Shown here one piece after another: positions 14,190 to 22,320 of a stretch of DNA of 31,259 nucleotides. A model generated the notes under the pieces. That model ran no database searches. It was not told the origin of the DNA and saw only the letters and a program-made list of their open reading frames with translations. The position numbers and the translations under genes were made by a program. The DNA comes from an uncultured Halobacteriales archaeon. Lineage in GTDB: Archaea > Thermoplasmatota > E2 > JACPAO01. The number at the start of each line of letters is the position of its first letter. The stretch's first letter is position 1. The stretch is from assembly GCA_964641035.1 (NCBI GenBank), contig CAZXJU010000002.1:1-31259 (forward strand), given 5' to 3'.

Positions 14190-14591
14190 TTAGCCGGATT
14201 CCCCCGCCACCACGGAATCGGCCCATGCGACGAGGCGCCGGGCCCGTTTCGTGGCCACCTCGGCCTCGTGCGCCTCGTACTCCCGCGCCTCGTACTCGAT
14301 GAGGTTCTTGTCGCGGATCAAACGCACGAACTGCTCCGCGCGGTCGTCCGCGTCGTCGAGCCCAGTTCGCCGCACGAGCTGGGAAGAGCGCTCGTGGTCG
14401 GCGTCGCGCGACCGTTCCCCCAGCATCCACGTCGTCACGGCGTCGACGGCCGAGATCCCGGCGTGGACCGCGCCAAGGCCCGCGGCGTTCCAGTCACCGC
14501 CTGAAAGCGAGGCCTCGGCGGCACGCAGGAACTCCGTCGATTTCCGGAGATAGACGTGGGATTTGCGTGCAGGAAGTCGTTTGACCCTCAT
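14190..14591 (-). CDS. HEPN domain protein (toxin partner of an MNT-HEPN module)
   Basis: Helical 133 aa protein: KSTEFLRAAEASL..GDWNAAGLGAVHAGISAVDA...KNLIEY. ATGA overlap with the upstream MNT gene. Confidence 0.8.
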   Translation of the reverse strand: MRVKRLPARKSHVYLRKSTEFLRAAEASLSGGDWNAAGLGAVHAGISAVDAVTTWMLGERSRDADHERSSQLVRRTGLDDADDRAEQFVRLIRDKNLIEYEAREYEAHEAEVATKRARRLVAWADSVVAGESG

Positions 14592-15187
14592 CCGTCGGCC
14601 GCCAGCATCGCGACCCCGTCCTTCTCGATGGCTCGGACCAAGGCCAGGTCGCGCTTGCTGTCAAATTCGTCTTCCGAGTAGATAACCTCCGCCAGGGGGT
14701 TGGTGAAAGTGGCTTCGATCGCCTTGCGCAGGGAAGCCACGGCGTCCCGGACACCGGCCTTGTCGTCATCGGCCCGGACGACGATGAGCAGGTCGATGTC
14801 GCTCGACGGGGTCTCCTCGCCCCGCGCGATGGACCCGAAAAGCGTCGCCTGGACGACGCGCGGGTCGGAGCCGACGTGGTCCCGGACCAGGTCCCGCAGC
14901 CGCCGGATCCCGCCGTCTTGCGCGGCGAGCAGGGCGCTGAGCGGTTCGACAAGGAAGTGCGTCCGCTGGAGCCGCCATTCGTGCGCGCGGCCGACGGTCC
15001 TGCGGTGGACCAATCCGTGCGACTCCAGCCGGCGAAGCGTCGTCAGGGCGTCGGAAGGATGCACATCGGCCGTTCGCGCCAGTTCCCGTCCTGTGAACCC
15101 CTTCGCCGGATGTCGCAGGAGGGTGCCGATGACGCGCAACGCACTGCGTCCCCGGAGGATGTCGTCCAGCGGAGAATGGAACCTCAT
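14588..15187 (-). CDS. wHTH + minimal nucleotidyltransferase (MNT) antitoxin
   Basis: N-terminal wHTH (FTGRELARTADVHPSDALTTLRRLESHGLV) and NTase motif LFGSIARGEETPSSDIDLLIV. Start is ATG 15187 (or 15205), not 15532. Confidence 0.85.
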   Translation of the reverse strand: MRFHSPLDDILRGRSALRVIGTLLRHPAKGFTGRELARTADVHPSDALTTLRRLESHGLVHRRTVGRAHEWRLQRTHFLVEPLSALLAAQDGGIRRLRDLVRDHVGSDPRVVQATLFGSIARGEETPSSDIDLLIVVRADDDKAGVRDAVASLRKAIEATFTNPLAEVIYSEDEFDSKRDLALVRAIEKDGVAMLAADG

Positions 15188-15225
15188 GTACGGAACCCTG
15201 TACATATGTACGGTATCACGTACAT
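15186..15225. promoter_or_regulatory. Two tandem 20-bp palindromic operators ATGTAC-N8-GTACAT
   Basis: 15186-15205 ATGTAC ggaaccct GTACAT and 15206-15225 ATGTAC ggtatcac GTACAT; they overlap the MNT start region. Confidence 0.7.
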
Positions 15226-15364
15226 AAGGGTTCGTTTGTGCCGCGGGCGTTGGCCGCCCGGCCGGTCGTCGACCGAGCCGCCGTGAAATCATAGCGTATG
15301 ATGGTTCTAAGGTGGTTCGCGCGGGCGGAAATGAGTCCTGGACTCCACATGCAAACCCGAACAC

Positions 15365-15379
15365 CAAACTCGCTATAAG
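15365..15379 (+). promoter_or_regulatory. BRE/TATA promoter
   Basis: CAAACtcgcTATAAG; shares CACCAAACTCG with the promoter at 26173-26190. Confidence 0.55.
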
Positions 15380-15404
15380 CGGGACAACGACCAAACCGGC
15401 CTTT

Positions 15405-15602
15405 GTGAACGTGAACATCGAACGGATGGCGGAGACGGTCCAATGGTCGCACACATGCGGTGCCGAGGGGTCCACGGTGGCCCCCATCGACGTCACACCC
15501 TTGGCCGAGCACCTGGCCGCGTGCCCCGACAACCGCGTGATCGTCGTCGAGCTACGCGAATCCTACGTCGTCTACGGCGACTGGATCCGCCCCGGCCGGT
15601 AG
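15405..15602 (+). CDS. Small hypothetical protein (65 aa; His/Cys pair motifs)
   Basis: GTG lies about 25 nt after the TATA box (leaderless spacing); alternative ATG at 15426. Contains WSHTCG...EHLAAC. Confidence 0.45.
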   Translation: MNVNIERMAETVQWSHTCGAEGSTVAPIDVTPLAEHLAACPDNRVIVVELRESYVVYGDWIRPGR

Positions 15603-15850: not shown

Positions 15851-16054
15851 TTATCCGAGCCTCCGCATCTTAATCGTTTCTATCACCAGCGCCAGCGCGA
15901 CCATCGCGACGGCCGTACCTGTCCATAACGCGAGATGATCGAGGCGTCCATCGAGGAAGCCTTGAAAGGCTTGGGCCGCGGCGTTGGCGCTGGCTAGGAT
16001 GGCGATCAACCAGGCCAGATGACGGTCCGCCAGTCGGACGACAGCCCTTTCCAT
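15851..16054 (-). CDS. Small two-TM protein (67 aa)
   Basis: MERAVVRLADRHLAWLIAILASANAAAQAF...LALWTGTAVAMVALALVIETIKMRRLG. Confidence 0.5.
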   Translation of the reverse strand: MERAVVRLADRHLAWLIAILASANAAAQAFQGFLDGRLDHLALWTGTAVAMVALALVIETIKMRRLG

Positions 16055-16259
16055 GCAAACCCGATTCACCGTTGACAGCAAAAGCCTCGTTGGTAACCGG
16101 GTTTGCGCGTCGGCCTCAATCCGTGTTCCTGCCGCATGCGAAGGCGAACGGCCGGATCCGTCCGGCGCAAGCTCCACCGCACGAACCCGAAGACGAAGCC
16201 GCCGCCCAAGGGGCCCCGAATCGAAAGGCTCAGGAGGCGACGACCCATCGAAGCCTCCG

Positions 16260-16880
16260 TTGGCTTCCCTCTTCACCCTCGTCGAAGCCCTCTGGCTCTT
16301 CCTGCCGGCCTACATCGCCAACATGACGCCGCCGGTCGCCGCCAAGGTCCTCCCCAAGTGGAACGCGCCGATCGACGGCGGCCGGACCCACCGCGACGGA
16401 CGGCCCGTGCTCGGGAAATCCAAGACGTGGCGCGGCCTCGTCACCGGCGCCGTCGCCGCCGCCCTCGTCGCCCTGGCCCAGAGCCTCGTGGTCCACACCG
16501 ACTGGGCGCTCTCCGACTTCGCGTACACCGCATTCGGAGACAACGTCGCCGCCCCGCTCGCCATCGGATTCGCGCTCGGATTCGGCGCCGTCGCCGGCGA
16601 CGCCATCAAATCCTACTTCAAACGCCGCACCGGCCGCCAAGGCGGCGCCCCCTGGATCCCCTTCGACCAGCTCGACTTCGTCGTCTTCGGCCTCGCCGCC
16701 GCCTTCCTCACCGCCACCCTCCTCTTTATGGCGGGCGCCACCAACCACTGGTTCCTCGACGGCTTCGTCCAGGGCGACGGCTGGATCCGCCTCCTCATCA
16801 TCGTCCTCGCCACCCCGCTTCTGCACCTCGCGGTCAACGTGATCGCGTACAAGCTCGGCTTCAAAGAGGTCCCGTGGTAG
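16260..16880 (+). CDS. carS: CDP-archaeol synthase (CDP-2,3-bis-O-geranylgeranyl-sn-glycerol synthase, DUF46)
   Basis: LPAYIAN..P, PIDGG...DGRP.LG.SKTWRG, GD..KSYFKRR.G...G.PW..FDQLDF; TTG start at 16260. Confidence 0.9.
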   Translation: MASLFTLVEALWLFLPAYIANMTPPVAAKVLPKWNAPIDGGRTHRDGRPVLGKSKTWRGLVTGAVAAALVALAQSLVVHTDWALSDFAYTAFGDNVAAPLAIGFALGFGAVAGDAIKSYFKRRTGRQGGAPWIPFDQLDFVVFGLAAAFLTATLLFMAGATNHWFLDGFVQGDGWIRLLIIVLATPLLHLAVNVIAYKLGFKEVPW

Positions 16881-16882
16881 CG

Positions 16883-17224
16883 ATGGGCGTCGATCTGTTG
16901 CGCGACGAACTCATCCGTTTCGAACGCCAAGGCGACGAGCAACCCACCAACCAGGAGCTGGAGGAATGGGCCGCGCAGGCACGCGCCAAAGGCAACGAAC
17001 TGCCCGAGCCGCCCAAGGCCCGCCGGCCGGAAGGCCCCTGCCGCCTCTGCCAGGAACGCCCCTCCGCCCACCGCTGCGTCGCCTGCGACCGCGACGCCTG
17101 CCGCGAAGACTACTGGGTGATGCTCGGCCTCTGCCGCGAATGCCTCACGGAAGAGGAACTGGCCGAGGCACGCCACCGGGAGAAAACCCCGCCCGAACTG
17201 GACATCAAGTGGGTCGAGGAGTGA
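16883..17224 (+). CDS. Zinc-finger protein (113 aa), probably co-transcribed with carS
   Basis: ATG 2 nt after the carS stop; CRLC-x8-CVAC-x4-C-x9-CREC; appears in the track only as the tail of 16103..17224. Confidence 0.8.
   Translation: MGVDLLRDELIRFERQGDEQPTNQELEEWAAQARAKGNELPEPPKARRPEGPCRLCQERPSAHRCVACDRDACREDYWVMLGLCRECLTEEELAEARHREKTPPELDIKWVEE
17080..17224 (+). repeat. 145-bp direct repeat, copy 1 (3' end of the zinc-finger gene)
   Basis: 138/145 identical to 19361..19505; both copies end at TGA. Confidence 0.95.
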
Positions 17225-17463
17225 TCGCCGCGGTGTCGTCGCGGCCACCGAAACCGGGACACTTCAGAGGACTTGCGCATAGGGACAAGCGAAGCACCAA
17301 TCCGCGCAGCCGGTTCGCCTCGGGGCACTGCCGTATGTCCTACACCGGCGCGTCCCGGCCTGGCGGCGCCCCGATTGCGTAGGGCGTAGTCAGGCCGAAA
17401 GTCGGCGTGAGACCAAGCGCCGGGATCTCGAACGGGCGCGCGGTGGTTCGGCAGGGCGAAGGG

Positions 17464-18441
17464 CTACTCGGGCGCGCCTTCCCGACCATCTCGCTTGCCA
17501 TGGGGATGCATCGCGCGCCACAAGGCAGCGGGATGGCGGTCGATGCCATCGGCCACCGGGATGTCGCCGAACAGCAGGTCAGGTTCGTGGCGCCCCCGTT
17601 CGAGTTCCAGCCCATATTTGATCTCGTCGTCGCTCCTCTCCAGCATCGCCTCGACCCGGGGAAGGACGGCAGCCTGAAGGTCCCGGGCCGTAGGAACGCC
17701 TTGCGCTCGGAGCATGGGGTGCAGGTGGGTGGCCAGGTCGTCGTCCGTCACCGCCCGAGTGTGGTCCAGGTCGACGAGGTCGAGCGTGGCGTCGTCCATA
17801 TGGCAGTGAAAAAGGAACGCGGCGCGGAGCATACGATCGTCAGGATGGACGTGCCCGTCGAAAAGGCGCGCGGCGTCGAACAGGTCCCTCGGATGGCCCC
17901 GGGCCACGAGAGCCTTGAGCTTCCCGCCGTAGACCTCCTCGGCGCGGAGCGCCGGCACGTGGGCCGCGTCGAGCTCGAACACCTCCGGCAGGTCGTGTTC
18001 CAAGAATCCGTACAATGAAAGGCGCATCAGGTAATTGATGTCGGCCCGGATGCTGTCCCGGTGACCATGGACGTTCGTGTAGCGAAATCGCAGCTTCCGG
18101 TGCGCGTGCGAGCGCGGACGCGGATCCCACTCGTACCCAAGGCTGTGCGTGAGGGCGCCGAGCTCGGCTTCGACCTCGTCGCGCTCCGCGACCATGGTGT
18201 CCCTGTCGAGGCTGCCGACGTAGTTGAGGTCCATATCGACGCTGAGGCGCGGCAGGTCGTCGTAGAAGAAGTTGATGCAGGTGCCACCCTTCAGGACGAG
18301 GCGTTCCCGGAGCCAGGGGTGTTCACCAATCCCCCGGAGCACCCTCGCAAGTCGGTACGCGCGCTCGAACTCCACGACAACGAAGCCCTCGTCACGGGCA
18401 GTGCGCTGAAGCCAGTCGGCGTCGATGTGTTCGTCAGGCAG
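17464..18441 (-). CDS. AbiEii-family nucleotidyltransferase toxin (type IV TA)
   Basis: LVLKGGTCINFFY..LPRLSVDMDL, K..AL..R..PRDLFD. The frame is open 22 codons upstream of GTG 18375, to CTG 18441, which has a GGTGA SD and overlaps the antitoxin stop. Confidence 0.88.
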   Translation of the reverse strand: MPDEHIDADWLQRTARDEGFVVVEFERAYRLARVLRGIGEHPWLRERLVLKGGTCINFFYDDLPRLSVDMDLNYVGSLDRDTMVAERDEVEAELGALTHSLGYEWDPRPRSHAHRKLRFRYTNVHGHRDSIRADINYLMRLSLYGFLEHDLPEVFELDAAHVPALRAEEVYGGKLKALVARGHPRDLFDAARLFDGHVHPDDRMLRAAFLFHCHMDDATLDLVDLDHTRAVTDDDLATHLHPMLRAQGVPTARDLQAAVLPRVEAMLERSDDEIKYGLELERGRHEPDLLFGDIPVADGIDRHPAALWRAMHPHGKRDGREGAPE

Positions 18442-19213
18442 ATCCGCTCACCGCCGGCGCGTGCGCGGGCACGATGACCTGCCAGTCGGGCTCGCTCCGC
18501 CCTCCACGGTTGGGCTTGACGCCGAAGTACGTGGTCCCCGTACCGAGCTTGGCCCTGAGTTCGCGGCGGACCGCGTCCGGCAGCCGCCAGCTGTCCGCAT
18601 TCGCGGCCACGAGGTAGCCGACCTTGCGATACAGTACCGTCTTGCCATAGATGGCGAGCAGGTCGAGCAGCCTGCCCCAATCGACGTAGGGGAAACCGCT
18701 CACGCTGGCGAGCACCTCCGGCAGGCCGCCGGCGTACTCGAGACGGTCCGCACATTGAATCAAAGCCAGCTCGCGGCACGCCACGTGGAGCGTGCCGCCG
18801 CTGCGCTTGGTGGTCGAGCGGCCCGCGTCGAGCACTTCCATGTCAATGGCGACGGGGTGGAACGCTTGGCGGTTCCACGTGAACGGGGTGAAGCGTGTGG
18901 GGGCGGCGACGTACACGGAGTGGAAGAAGGCCGACTCAGCGACGCCGTTGAGTTCGAGCGCGGTGTGGTAGGAAAAAAGGTAGGGTTCTACGACCTTGCT
19001 GGCCACGACCAGCGGGTCGGGTGAATCCGATCCGGCGCGTTCGGGGACGAGCACGTAGAGGCCTCGCCGGACGCGCTCGACGTAGCCCCGGTCCAGGAGA
19101 TACTTGACCTGCTTCCACGTGGCCTCGCGGTCCTCCCCCGTCACGGCCACAGCCTCATCCATCGTAAAGCACGCGGGTGTCTGGAAGGCCTCCACGAGGC
19201 GAGGGCGAGGCAT
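18434..19213 (-). CDS. AbiEi-family antitoxin / transcriptional regulator
   Basis: N-terminal wHTH (YLLDRGYVERVRRGLY) and LFSYHTALELNG motif; directly upstream of the AbiEii gene; ATG 19213 preferred. Confidence 0.85.
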   Translation of the reverse strand: MPRPRLVEAFQTPACFTMDEAVAVTGEDREATWKQVKYLLDRGYVERVRRGLYVLVPERAGSDSPDPLVVASKVVEPYLFSYHTALELNGVAESAFFHSVYVAAPTRFTPFTWNRQAFHPVAIDMEVLDAGRSTTKRSGGTLHVACRELALIQCADRLEYAGGLPEVLASVSGFPYVDWGRLLDLLAIYGKTVLYRKVGYLVAANADSWRLPDAVRRELRAKLGTGTTYFGVKPNRGGRSEPDWQVIVPAHAPAVSGSA

Positions 19214-19230
19214 TGTCTTCAAGCACGAGT

Positions 19231-19333
19231 AACCTCCCATGCATTTAGAGGTTTCTCTATTCAATCGATAAGAAAACTAAGGTGAGATGTTACTATCTCT
19301 TCATCAGAGAAACCTCCAACGTTTTAGGAGGTT
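19231..19333. promoter_or_regulatory. Two AACCTC-N11-GAGGTT palindromes in the abiE promoter
   Basis: Located at 19231-19253 and 19311-19333, 80 bp apart, in an AT-rich stretch. GAGGTTTCTCT (19248-19258) is also the reverse complement of AGAGAAACCTC (19306-19316). Confidence 0.6.
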
Positions 19334-19360
19334 TTTCAATTCACCCGGTAGTTGTTCACA

Positions 19361-19505
19361 CGCCTGCGACCGCGACGCGTGCCGCGAAGACTACTGGCTG
19401 ATGCTCGGCCTCTGCCGCGAATGCCTCACAGAAGAGGAACTGGCCGAGGCACGCCACCGCGAGAAGCCCCCGCCCGAACTGGACATCAAGTGGGTCGAGG
19501 ACTGA
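19361..19505 (+). pseudogene. 145-bp direct repeat, copy 2: orphan 3' fragment of the zinc-finger gene
   Basis: Encodes ACDRDACREDYWLMLGLCRECLTEEELAEARHREKPPPELDIKWVED*, without the N-terminal part of the gene. Confidence 0.9.
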
Positions 19506-19598
19506 CTTCGCCGGGAGGCCGCCTCGAACCAAAATCACCAGAAACTTTATTCTATGGTGGTTGTAATACTCATAAAATCGAATCTGTGAGAAGTATAC

Positions 19599-20867
19599 AT
19601 GCCAAATCTTCGAGAGGCGCTGGTGGAACGCAACCCGTGGTGGAAAGGCGAATTCCAGGTCGCGTACCGACCACGACGAATCTACGACCGCCTCCAGAAA
19701 TTCCAGGACCACCGCCAGATCATCGCCCTCACCGGGCTACGCCGCGTCGGAAAGACCACCCTTCTCCTCAAACTCGTCCAAGACGCCCTCGACGGCGGCA
19801 CGGAACCCCAAGCGATCCTCTACTTCGCATTCGACGAATTCCCCGACGCCGACCTCCGTGAGGTACTACGCACGTACGCCGACCTGTTCGACCGCGACCT
19901 CCGAAACGACCACCACCTCATCCTCCTCGACGAAATCCAGAAAGTCGAAGGCTGGCAAGACCAACTGAAGGCGCTCTACGACACGTACGACCACCTGAAG
20001 TTCATCGTCTCCGGCTCCGAGTCCCTCTTCATCCGACAGGGAGCGCGCGCCACCCTGGCCGGCCGCCTTTTCGAATTCCAAGTCGACCCGCTTACGTTCG
20101 CCGAGTACCTCGAATTCCGAAACATCCCGCACCAGCCGCGCAAGCTGCACGAGGCGGAGATCCGGCGCGCCTTCGAGGCGTACGTACCCACCCAAGGATT
20201 CCCGGAACTCGCCGAGACGCGCGACAAGGACGTCATCCGCAAGTACGTCCGCGAAAGCATCGTCGAGAAGCTCGTCTACCGGGACCTTCCGACGCTCCTT
20301 TCCCTCCGGCAACCCGGCGTCCTCGAATCGATCCTCAACATCCTCCTGGACGACCCAGGCCAGATCCTATACGCATCCGACCTCGCCGGCGAGCTCGGTG
20401 TCTCCCGCCAGACCGTCGCCGCGTACCTCTCGTATTTGGAGCAAGCGTTCCTCATCCGGAAACTGTACAACTACTCCACCGGCCCACGCAAGGTCGAACG
20501 CAAGCTCCGCAAGTACTACGCCACCGTCGCCTCCGTCGACCTCCTCTTCCGAGAGGACCCCGCCTCGCGGGGCCGCGCCCTCGAATGGGTCATCGTCAAC
20601 CAATTGCGCGCCGAATACTTCTGGCGCGACGCGCAAAAGAACGAGGTCGACATCGTCGTCGCCGGCGACCCACCGCTCCCAATCGAGGTCAAGTCCGGAC
20701 GCGTCCGGACGCGCGGCATCGAAGCCTTCCTCCGCACGTTCGACGCGCCCCGCGGCGTCGTCGTCACACGGGACGCGGAAGCCCACCATCAGAAAGACGG
20801 ACGCACCATCGAAACGATCCCCGCGTACAAGTACCTCCTTCGCCCACCGACAGACGACGAACGCTGA
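19599..20867 (+). CDS. ATP-binding protein, AAA_14 + DUF4143 type (COG1373-like)
   Basis: GLRRVGKTT, ILLDEIQ, VSGSES, GFPE; C-terminal NEVDIV..PIEVKSG. Confidence 0.9.
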   Translation: MPNLREALVERNPWWKGEFQVAYRPRRIYDRLQKFQDHRQIIALTGLRRVGKTTLLLKLVQDALDGGTEPQAILYFAFDEFPDADLREVLRTYADLFDRDLRNDHHLILLDEIQKVEGWQDQLKALYDTYDHLKFIVSGSESLFIRQGARATLAGRLFEFQVDPLTFAEYLEFRNIPHQPRKLHEAEIRRAFEAYVPTQGFPELAETRDKDVIRKYVRESIVEKLVYRDLPTLLSLRQPGVLESILNILLDDPGQILYASDLAGELGVSRQTVAAYLSYLEQAFLIRKLYNYSTGPRKVERKLRKYYATVASVDLLFREDPASRGRALEWVIVNQLRAEYFWRDAQKNEVDIVVAGDPPLPIEVKSGRVRTRGIEAFLRTFDAPRGVVVTRDAEAHHQKDGRTIETIPAYKYLLRPPTDDER

Positions 20868-20930
20868 TCACGCCCACGGGTTCCACGGGAACCACGACGG
20901 CACGTACGCCGCCAAGAAGTCGAAGGCGCC
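20868..20930 (-). repeat. 63-bp perfect direct repeat: orphan last 21 codons of the membrane gene 22114..22320
   Basis: Identical to 22114..22176 (GAFDFLAAYVPSWFPWNPWA*); its stop abuts the ATPase stop (TGA|TCA). Confidence 0.95.
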
Positions 20931-21076
20931 GCCCTTCGACCTGACGGCAACGACGGCGGGGCGGCCTCTAGGGTCAAACCATGTCCGGGCCGAATCCCGT
21001 GCACCGCAGGTCGAATCCGGGTTCGACCCGCGCCTGGCGGGAACGTTCATATAGGAACAAACGCCATTGTTTGCTC

Positions 21077-21457
21077 ATGGGCAATGCGTCGGCCATCCCG
21101 GACCTCAACGACAGGTACGAGTTGAACGTCGCCGTCCAGCTTCTCAACGGACCCGACCTCGACCTGGAAATCCTCGAACAACTGGTCGGGCGGCCGCGCC
21201 GGTGGAGCGAACTCCGGGACGCGCTCGGGGTGGACGCCGACATGCAATTGAACCGCAGCTTGCGGCGACTCCTCGACTTCGCGGCCATCGACAAGGTCAC
21301 CGACCATGCGAAGAAACCAGCCGTAAGCACGTACCGGCTTACACCGATCGGCGTCCACGTGTTCTACACCTTAGCCGCGGTCCGCACACCGCTGCGCGAT
21401 TACACGGAAATCGCCCGCGCCCTCAAGGAAACCGGCGGCGTCCGGACGACCGCCTGA
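21077..21457 (+). CDS. Winged-helix (HxlR/ArsR-like) regulator
   Basis: LEILEQLVGRPRRWSEL..ALG....LNRSLRRL...YRLTPIG; ATG 21077. Confidence 0.7.
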   Translation: MGNASAIPDLNDRYELNVAVQLLNGPDLDLEILEQLVGRPRRWSELRDALGVDADMQLNRSLRRLLDFAAIDKVTDHAKKPAVSTYRLTPIGVHVFYTLAAVRTPLRDYTEIARALKETGGVRTTA

Positions 21458-21471
21458 GGACGTTGGACGCG

Positions 21472-21954
21472 ATGCCACCAATCCCTGGGCTCCCGCCCGG
21501 CGCAATCGAACGGGTCCGGCCGCACCTCCAGAAAACAGTCGGGTTCATTCTTGCCGCCAGCGGCGATTGTCTGGACATCCAGGCACGCGAAGTCGATACC
21601 ATCAAGACGCGCCGGTTCCAGTCGGTGGGCCCGCACCAGTTGGAATCGCTGGAATTGCCGGAAAGTTGGATTCTTGCCGCCGTGATGTGCCCAGGCGACG
21701 ACACACGCGCCATCGCCCGGTTCACCGAGGGACTCGACGCGGGCGACCGCCAACGCATCCGGTTCTACTGGTACCCGGAGACACGCCCCGCCGACGCTCT
21801 GAAGCCGTGGCTCGCCGCAGGCCTTGGTCCAATCCAAGAAGACGACATCGACGGCTGGCAACGGTTTCACAAGCTCTTCGGCGCGCACCATTCCATCCAG
21901 GTGTTCATTGACCAAGCAGACCGTGGCCCCGCCACCGCGAAACGCGTGCGATGA
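21472..21954 (+). CDS. Hypothetical protein (160 aa), operonic with the wHTH gene
   Basis: ATG 14 nt after the wHTH stop; protein-like composition (MPPIPGLPPGAIERVRPHLQKTVGFILAASG...). No family recognised. Confidence 0.6.
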   Translation: MPPIPGLPPGAIERVRPHLQKTVGFILAASGDCLDIQAREVDTIKTRRFQSVGPHQLESLELPESWILAAVMCPGDDTRAIARFTEGLDAGDRQRIRFYWYPETRPADALKPWLAAGLGPIQEDDIDGWQRFHKLFGAHHSIQVFIDQADRGPATAKRVR

Positions 21955-21973
21955 GCGGAACTTCGGATCCTGG

Positions 21974-22019
21974 GGGAACTGGACGTGCCAAGATATCGAA
22001 CCCTGGCACTCCGGTTCCC
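21974..22019. terminator. Strong hairpin between convergent genes
   Basis: GGGAAC-TGGA-c-GTGCCA / 13-nt loop / TGGCAC-TCCG-GTTCCC: 16 bp with one bulge and one G-U pair. Confidence 0.45.
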
Positions 22020-22113
22020 ACACGTTCTGCGGGCGACGGTCAGGTAACGAAGCCCCGAAGGCACGGCGTGGCCGGGCCTCACTATCGCACCCGAAAGGAC
22101 CCGGGGCCCCGAT

Positions 22114-22320
22114 TCACGCCCACGGGTTCCACGGGAACCACGACGGCACGTACGCCGCCAAGAAGTCGAAGGCGCCCAACTGCCACGCCACGAAGACCAC
22201 GAACGCGACCGCGCCCGCCACGATCGCGAACTTGATCAGGCTCTTGATGATGAAGAAGACCACGACGATCGCGATGATCACGATGACCGTGAAGGGGACC
22301 GCCGTCTCGAGCGCAACCAT
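22114..22320 (-). CDS. Small membrane protein (68 aa); target gene of cassette B
   Basis: Two hydrophobic helices, a Trp/Pro-rich tail and a GGAG SD upstream; its last 63 bp are duplicated at 20868. Confidence 0.8.
   Translation of the reverse strand: MVALETAVPFTVIVIIAIVVVFFIIKSLIKFAIVAGAVAFVVFVAWQLGAFDFLAAYVPSWFPWNPWA

Follow-up and report, generated by a model that had tools for sequence, protein, structure and literature searches.

Introduction

The usual view is that archaeal defence and accessory genes travel on elements that carry an integrase, or enter through a clean double crossover located in the core genes on either side. Integration at the 3′ end of a gene, with a replacement tail supplied by the element, is the classical signature of tyrosine-integrase elements. 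Islands of this type are bounded by direct repeats of the target gene 3′ end, the gene being restored by the copy that the element brings in, and their integrase-less derivatives (cis-mobilizable elements, or CIMEs, and tycheposon-like arrays) consist of cassettes lying between att-like repeats, with tandem growth possible. Here we analyze a 31,259-nucleotide (nt) contig of an uncultured soil archaeon (CAZXJU010000002.1, hereafter the window), in which the 3′ end of a small cysteine-rich gene, X, is present twice, on either side of a two-gene AbiE cassette.

Displaced 3′ ends can also be produced with no dedicated recombinase. Homology-facilitated illegitimate recombination (HFIR) was put forward to account for orphan modules and displaced 3′ ends of type VI secretion system (T6SS) arrays of Vibrio, and is cited there for Rhs (PMC5361080). 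In arrays of this kind (Rhs, contact-dependent inhibition, T6SS effector-immunity) the only homologous anchor is a conserved gene upstream, cargo lies directly after this gene, and the old 3′ end is pushed downstream as an orphan. Campbell-type “pop-in”, used in archaeal laboratory genetics, yields an insert with a copy of the homologous segment on each side, in direct orientation, and is reversible by recombination between the two copies. During E. coli conjugation, circular DNA carrying a single segment of homology underwent single crossover and gave 109–950 bp duplications of that segment (PMC3240628).

The locus described below is comparable to each of these systems. As in HFIR, the anchor gene adjoins the cassette, the far junction lacks homology and a resident 3′ fragment (19361–19505) is kept. 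As after a pop-in, the insert is flanked by direct repeats, here of 145 nt. As in CIMEs and tycheposon-like arrays, target-gene 3′-end repeats, a restored gene and integrase-less cassettes are found in tandem. We favour, with some reserve, the reading that the repeat is a 3′ end displaced by recombination anchored in X, either through HFIR or through a single-crossover pop-in.

Results

The 3′ end of gene X is duplicated around an AbiE cassette

The window is contig C2 of a fragmented soil metagenome-assembled genome (MAG), G000 (2.1 Mb in 305 contigs, 86% complete). That the organism is an archaeon is indicated by a CDP-archaeol-synthase-family gene, archaeal pilin domains and an aIF2-gamma gene, and named database hits suggest Thermoplasmatota. 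The following features make up the locus.

16883–17224, plus strand: gene X, 113 aa by translation, with seven Cys (CxxC-x8-CxxC-x4-C-x10-CxxC); its 3′ end is duplicated
17080–17224, plus strand: repeat copy L, the native end of X, covering codons 67–114 (47 residues and the stop) and, ahead of them, the third base of codon 66
17225–17463, no strand: non-coding left flank of the AbiE cassette, directly adjoining the stop of X; the sequence that follows X in the relatives shows no similarity to it
17464–18375, minus strand: AbiEii nucleotidyltransferase toxin gene, 303 aa (Pfam PF08843, E=4.4e-29)
18434–19264, minus strand: AbiEi antitoxin/regulator gene (Pfam PF13338, E=5e-7); longest open reading frame (ORF) 276 aa, called product 262 aa (P0012) starting at 19222
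19231–19333, no strand: AT-rich imperfect inverted repeat upstream of abiEi, the last cassette-specific sequence before the orphan
19361–19505, plus strand: repeat copy R, or X′, the orphan 3′ end of X, without codons 1–66

Repeat search and pairwise alignment showed that L and R align over 145 nt with 7 mismatches and 0 gaps. On the 3′ side the similarity ends at the TGA stop codon, past which just the 6-nt sequence TCGCCG is shared, after a 2-nt indel. On the 5′ side, pairwise alignment of the sequences to the left of 19361 and of 17080 revealed no similarity. Four of the differences are synonymous (GCC/GCG in codon 72, ACG/ACA in codon 89, CGG/CGC in codon 99, AAA/AAG in codon 101) and three are replacements, all conservative (GTG/CTG, V79L; ACC/CCC, T102P; GAG/GAC, E113D). 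Five fall in third, two in first and none in second codon positions, and all four Cys of the repeated part (C68, C73, C84 and C87) are kept in both copies. Every substitution listed by the first-pass annotation of this DNA was thereby reproduced. The annotation had also pointed out that recombination between the copies would swap the C-terminus of the X protein, which is correct, yet amounts to three conservative residues.

R lies within a 72-codon ORF (19287–19505) that is a called gene in the protein collection (P0002) and has no relatives there. It is most likely a spurious call that joins promoter-region sequence to the displaced X fragment, and annotators should be aware that calls such as this one are displaced gene fragments. 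The X protein itself belongs to no Pfam family and has no match below E=0.01.

The cassette is 2136 nt long, and between L and R it contains solely the AbiEii and AbiEi genes with their non-coding flanks. Like AbiE type IV toxin-antitoxin (TA), or abortive-infection, systems, it combines both Pfam families in antitoxin-then-toxin order on one strand and has an inverted repeat in its promoter region. This repeat (40-nt arms, 70% complementary) is likely the promoter/operator of the cassette, its operator role being suggested by the known autoregulation by AbiEi. The two proteins differ from described AbiE systems in being at most 65% identical to the nearest database homolog, and their toxin and antitoxin functions are predicted ones. 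AbiE homologs of 60–65% identity (L016, L017 and one NCBI contig) occur in unrelated contexts with no X tail. The AbiE cassette is therefore not generally tied to X, and we treat it as the cargo at this locus, not as the mechanism under question.

No terminal inverted repeats pairing the ends of the AbiE cassette (cassette A) were found by repeat search. Pfam scans of all ORFs between X and gene Y revealed no integrase or recombinase in or beside cassette A or a second cassette, B (Y and B are described below).

The X|Y boundary is a recombination hot spot

Downstream of X′ a second footprint of the same kind was found, which involves gene Y. In the window the region reads X - [AbiE] - X′ - [AAA_14/DUF4143 ATPase] - Y′ - [winged helix-turn-helix (wHTH) gene and 151-aa ORF] - Y, with a CarS-like gene ahead of X.

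16053–16880, plus strand: CarS-like (CDP-archaeol synthase family) membrane protein gene, upstream of X and coupled to it (Pfam PF01864, E=6e-33)
19599–20867, plus strand: AAA_14/DUF4143 ATPase gene between X′ and Y′ (Pfam PF13173, E=4e-32; PF13635, E=2e-19); its TGA stop abuts the TCA of Y′
20868–20930, minus strand: Y′, orphan 3′ end of Y, last 20 codons and stop, 63 nt, 100% identical to 22114–22176
20931–22113, plus strand: cassette B, with an HxlR-like wHTH gene (20981–21457) and a 151-aa ORF without family (21499–21954), by Pfam scans
22114–22320, minus strand: gene Y, coding for a 68-aa hydrophobic (membrane) protein, convergent with X; in the empty-site relative L014 its stop abuts that of X

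X begins 2 nt past the stop of the CarS-like gene. Five X orthologs (79–93% identity) were found in a collection of 15 billion proteins, all on short soil Logan contigs (L011–L015), and the CarS-X pair is present in the contigs of all five relatives. Alignment scans with the X protein returned no further homologs from JGI metagenome contigs or GTDB genome contigs, and a DNA search in 60 relatives gave short, distant matches only; a tree of X tails therefore rests on the five Logan contigs.

One of the relatives, L014, represents an empty site: the TGA of X is directly followed by the TCA (reverse stop) of Y, with 0 nt between them. A contig of run X7, the same as L014, joins 17224 to 22114. 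L013 has an S8 peptidase gene between X and Y (1.4 kb interval), L011 has 6.1 kb between them, and in L012 and L015 other genes follow X. Each relative sampled has a different content between X and Y, which marks the X|Y boundary as a hot spot of recombination. Neither a duplicated X tail nor an X′ remnant was detected in L011–L015, including those with other cargo after X. The hot spot is usually filled without a footprint, and two footprints are present in this genome.

The 66 nt at 20865–20930, TGA included, are perfectly identical to L014:696–761, with the ATPase stop abutting Y′ just as the X stop abuts Y in the empty site. This may be chance, or it may hint that the ATPase insert entered just before an old X stop.

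Both cassette junctions recur in independent assemblies

In the sample that is the probable source, Logan contigs agree with the window without mismatch over 17118–17508 and 19007–19428. They cross the X-stop|cassette and cassette|orphan junctions, which are therefore not artefacts of MAG assembly. Contigs of run X4, which comes from a different study, are 90–97% identical to the window and cross both junctions of cassette A at the same positions (17123–17267 into abiEii; 18248–19430 from abiEii through abiEi into R; 19404–20905 from R through the ATPase gene into Y′). In X4 cassette B is uncovered, with depth near 0 over 20983–22087. The X4 strain is 3–7% diverged from the window, and 6–7% diverged in its AbiE genes. 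Cassette A was encountered in a single lineage, and the shared junctions are probably due to descent; the AbiE-plus-tail unit thus predates the split from that strain, and cassette B is recent.

In X4, 114 nt of the non-coding flank (17268–17382) are swapped for unrelated sequence of similar length, while the sides are 89–93% identical. The depth of the X4 cassette contigs (9.9, compared to 6.7–8.0 for flanking contigs) was considered as a sign of extra circular copies, a use that contig depths from mixed soil do not support.

Could the contig string together strain variants, the two tails being alleles of two co-assembled strains? The MAG is fragmented and was assembled at k=55, and about 20 of its contigs (e.g. 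C3:25367–25576) have perfect 55-nt direct repeats flanking exactly 100 N, which are therefore scaffolding artefacts of the largest k=55 and not biological repeats. In addition, the Logan contigs of X4 and X1, assembled at k=31, break at a single 31-mer common to L and R, so that the halves of each tail are unphased there. The window assembly does phase the tails: exact runs common to L and R reach 34 nt at most, so that any 55-mer spanning the repeat is copy-specific. Moreover, at 19360|19361 the interior of a gene directly follows sequence that is not homologous to it, and this junction is crossed both by an independent X1 contig (no mismatch) and by a 94%-identical X4 contig from another study. 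Mixing of strains does not produce a junction of this type, and we consider an artefact of assembly highly improbable.

The joint 17224→19506, expected from pop-out of cassette A, was not found in four runs. One X1 contig joins 20867→22114 without cassette B; it crosses the 63-nt exact repeat at k=31 and may represent either a cassette-free haplotype or a shortcut in the k=31 graph. A search for runs that contain the orphan only, made with just 10 sampled words, gave shares of 0.3–0.5 in other studies, too coarse to interpret.

The orphan tail resembles an undecayed functional allele

According to the first-pass annotation, both copies evolved as functional gene ends, i.e. the tails are alleles under purifying selection and not a duplicate and its decaying remnant. 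To polarise the seven differences the five orthologs were used. In L the seven sites read C19, G38, G70, G100, A106, A107 and G142 (repeat positions). Two of these states, C19 and A107 (the latter giving T102), are private to L, and no state is private to R; the remaining five sites show both variants among the orthologs. Compared to L, R is closer to each ortholog (9, 13, 20, 12 and 31 differences for R; 10, 18, 22, 14 and 33 for L). The ratio of non-synonymous to synonymous differences (pN/pS) between L and R is 0.20, within the range of true orthologs (0.08–0.28), and R shows pN/pS of 0.08–0.14 against the four close orthologs, as low as L does.

If the tail had been duplicated locally and the orphan had then evolved neutrally, at least half of the seven changes would be expected on R, about 88% of them private. 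The probability that R has no private change under this model is about 0.003–0.017. The L-R codon pattern is by itself marginal and weak evidence (P=0.045 for at least 5 of 7 changes in third positions; P=0.041 for at least 4 of 7 synonymous under full neutrality), and it does not reach significance when selection is assumed on L only. The claim of the first-pass annotation is thus partly supported: R looks like an undecayed functional allele that lies nearer all orthologs, and the genome-wide pattern described below agrees with this, while a tree of the tails makes L and R sisters.

These data bear directly on a local origin of the repeat, in which the tail was duplicated in place at insertion, for example by unequal sister-chromosome exchange, and the differences arose later, mainly on L, by mutation or allelic recombination. 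That both clearly polarised changes lie on L is what such a history predicts, and L and R are nearest neighbours with three shared derived states. The identity of the 63-nt Y/Y′ pair indicates that duplication without initial divergence is possible at this very locus. Four-gamete-type mosaics among X alleles show that recombination shuffles the X tail. On the other hand, an orphan under no selection is expected to evolve no more slowly than the selected copy, yet R has no private change. Five of the seven sites are also polymorphic, with the same variants, among the orthologs, and four other loci, with three in-frame indels among them, would need the same coincidence. We consider a local origin unlikely, though local duplication followed by allelic replacement of L deserves to be kept in view.

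Six loci in the genome share the same geometry

Self-BLAST of the whole G000 genome revealed, besides Y and cassette B, four more loci (designated L020–L023) with an intact gene, a cassette no more than 7 nt from its stop and an orphan copy of the gene tail on the far side.

C42:3302–5359: anchor, a 163-aa gene without family; repeat 156/168 nt, 12-nt indel; cargo, a collagen/MopE-like secreted protein
C194:2039–3931: anchor, aIF2-gamma; repeat 82/85 nt, 3-nt indel; cargo, a VWA-like protein
C9:3432–4792: anchor, a 260-aa gene without family; repeat 132 nt, 18 mismatches (13 third-position, 0 second-position); cargo, an ORF of unknown family
C47:7785–10789: anchor, a UbiA-family prenyltransferase gene; repeat 143/149 nt, 6-nt indel; cargo, a GAF-PAS histidine kinase

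Together with X/A and Y/B this makes six loci with repeats of 63–170 nt, 0–17% diverged, each with a different target gene. Pooled mismatches are distributed over the three codon positions as 14:11:38, which differs from the uniform distribution expected of two neutral copies (P=3e-5), and all three indels (12, 3 and 6 nt) are multiples of 3 and in frame. Cluster look-ups returned no relatives of the C9, C42 and C47 anchor genes.

Pfam scans of the cargo revealed no recombinase in any of the six cassettes. A target-site duplication by a transposon or casposon was rejected, the repeats being 63–170 nt long, unequal and 0–17% diverged, with no paired inverted repeats; an integron cassette was rejected as well.

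Site-specific integration is a further alternative. Cassette A would then be a remnant, or a trans-mobilised CIME-like satellite, of an integrative element with an attP bearing the last 145 nt of X, and L and R would be attL and attR. This arrangement fits the classical tyrosine-integrase signature, with a repeat that ends at the stop codon, and it also predicts allele-like tails; the exact L/R runs of 31–34 nt could contain a core site. Two PF00589 recombinase genes are present elsewhere in the genome, on C13 and C277, and the diverged strain of run X4 retains the unit of cassette and tail. Against these points, no integrase is found in or beside cassette A, cassette B or the other four cassettes, and one of the PF00589 proteins (159 bits, 317 aa) probably belongs to the housekeeping Xer type, judged by its score. 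Six targets with repeats of 63–170 nt would require several specificities, which argues against a single enzyme, and no X′ remnant is seen in those relatives in which X is followed by other cargo. Overall we consider site-specific integration unlikely. The lack of a recombinase and of inverted repeats, and the differing repeat lengths and targets, speak for general recombination rather than for a site-specific enzyme or a transposase.

Proposed recombination anchored in X and the observations that weigh against it

The sequence of events that we favour would start from the state in which X and Y are convergent, stop codon against stop codon. DNA of a related strain, in which X was directly followed by AbiEi/AbiEii, would have recombined using X as the sole homologous anchor, while its far end would have been attached, with no homology, within the resident X at a point 145 nt ahead of the stop. 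On the HFIR route a linear donor fragment would undergo homologous exchange in X upstream of the repeat and an illegitimate far joint; alternatively, a circularised fragment with one homologous segment could enter by single-crossover pop-in. Neither route would need an integrase or a transposase. The product would be an intact X with donor-type tail L, then the cassette, then the stranded resident tail R, and the seven differences would mostly be standing allelic differences from the time when both tails belonged to working genes. The recombination route, the assignment of the donor copy and the arrival of cassette and tail in a single event are inferred. Under HFIR, L would be the donor tail and R the resident one, in agreement with R being more consensus-like. 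Both routes predict one donor and one recipient allele; the difference between them, pure as against hybrid tails L and R, is beyond the resolution of seven sites.

Several observations weigh against this sequence of events, the tree of tails first among them. Over the 145 nt, L and R differ at 7 positions, R and L014 at 9, L and L014 at 10, and distances to the other orthologs are 12–33. In a maximum-likelihood tree of L, R and the five Logan orthologs (IQ-TREE, HKY+G, ultrafast bootstrap (UFBoot)), L and R are sisters (UFBoot 80), with L014 next (77). In the approximately unbiased (AU) test the sister topology has p=0.86, grouping of L with L014 is not rejected (p=0.26) and grouping of R with L014 is rejected (p=0.0025). 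L and R alone share three derived states, at repeat positions 91, 109 and 121, found in none of the five orthologs. Thus, unless the duplication was local, the donor must have been closer than all of the strains sampled. The first-pass annotation had taken grouping of the copies with different strains as a sign of inter-strain transfer, and copies closest to each other as refuting its view; formally the tree gives the latter result. This result carries little weight here, since L014, which is the closest strain apart from the window, is more diverged from it (6.3% in the body of X and CarS) than L is from R (4.8%), and any donor closer than the L014 lineage would yield the same tree. The annotation had also asked which copy empty-site relatives carry. 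The answer is neither: the tail of L014 is a mosaic, which agrees with R at four of the seven sites and with L at the remaining three.

No clear step in divergence that could mark a recombination breakpoint was seen in X/CarS compared to L014. A hybrid tail made from L and R split between repeat positions 70 and 100 is nearer to L014 (7 differences); it was dropped as over-fitting on seven sites.

The age of the unit is the second difficulty. The AbiE-plus-tail unit is old, yet R has no private change, and a neutral orphan of such age should have decayed. One insertion followed by vertical descent is therefore insufficient. Constraint on R, repeated exchange with functional alleles by pop-out and pop-in, or movement of the whole module between strains are possible explanations.

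The genome-wide set is also less decisive than the uniform comparison suggests. Tested against a model in which the intact copy is selected and the orphan is neutral, the pooled codon-position bias is marginal (P=0.02–0.08), and the C194 and C47 orphans carry second-position changes, which indicates some decay. The expectation of the first-pass annotation that a larger set of such fragments would be third-position-biased rather than neutral is thus borne out by the 14:11:38 ratio and the in-frame indels, and only marginally so against the model with a neutral orphan; the six loci weakly back the allelic interpretation of the tails without proving it. Finally, neither a donor nor a circular or excised form of cassette A was observed, and no microhomology was observed at the junction, which is not assessable without the donor sequence.

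The neighbourhood of the CarS gene

The ATPase gene at 19599–20867 has its closest database homolog at 64% identity, and a second AAA_14/DUF4143 ATPase gene is located at 1132–2595. On the minus strand, a HEPN-domain gene (14190–14591) overlaps a wHTH-nucleotidyltransferase gene (14588–15532), forming a HEPN/MNT-type TA pair. Together with AbiE and the ATPases, this pair makes the whole CarS neighbourhood a variable region rich in defence and TA genes.

Discussion

The process that we propose, one-sided homologous recombination with displacement of a 3′ end, is of a known kind; here the host is an uncultured archaeon and the cargo a defence cassette. The direct repeat, the empty site, the hot spot, the lack of a recombinase in the cassette, the undecayed orphan and the common geometry of six loci are all observed.

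The locus departs from each of the described systems in some respects. In HFIR arrays the displaced end is a polymorphic toxin tip, whereas here it is a conserved, near-identical allele. The cargo here is a defence or accessory cassette unrelated to its anchor, and the anchors include such housekeeping genes as aIF2-gamma and UbiA. The host is an uncultured archaeon, for which HFIR is a predicted route. Compared to Campbell-type pop-in, the event at X is a natural one with no circular intermediate observed, and the hybrid tails that the pop-in model predicts on both sides are unresolvable with 7 sites. Unlike CIMEs and tycheposon-like arrays, the locus has no linked integrase, its repeats are long and diverged throughout instead of being built around a short identical core, and each of the six loci has its own target.

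A more speculative possibility, to which we assign a low probability, is that cassette and captured tail together are a mobile unit, self-contained and free of any integrase, which uses the 145-nt tail as an address label and, by host homologous recombination, pops out as a circle and re-enters behind X in whichever strain has this gene. If so, each cycle would swap tail segments with the working allele, which would explain why the orphan has not decayed, and cycling would also explain the presence of the same-junction unit in strains whose AbiE genes are 6–7% apart.

For practical purposes, a direct repeat of a gene 3′ end within a few kb provides a search rule for recent insertions and their boundaries in MAGs. 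The six footprints are a sequence-level record of one-sided homologous recombination in a natural population of uncultured soil archaea. Should the mobile unit exist, six such loci in a 2.1-Mb genome would mark a general, recombinase-independent traffic of cassettes in this archaeal lineage.

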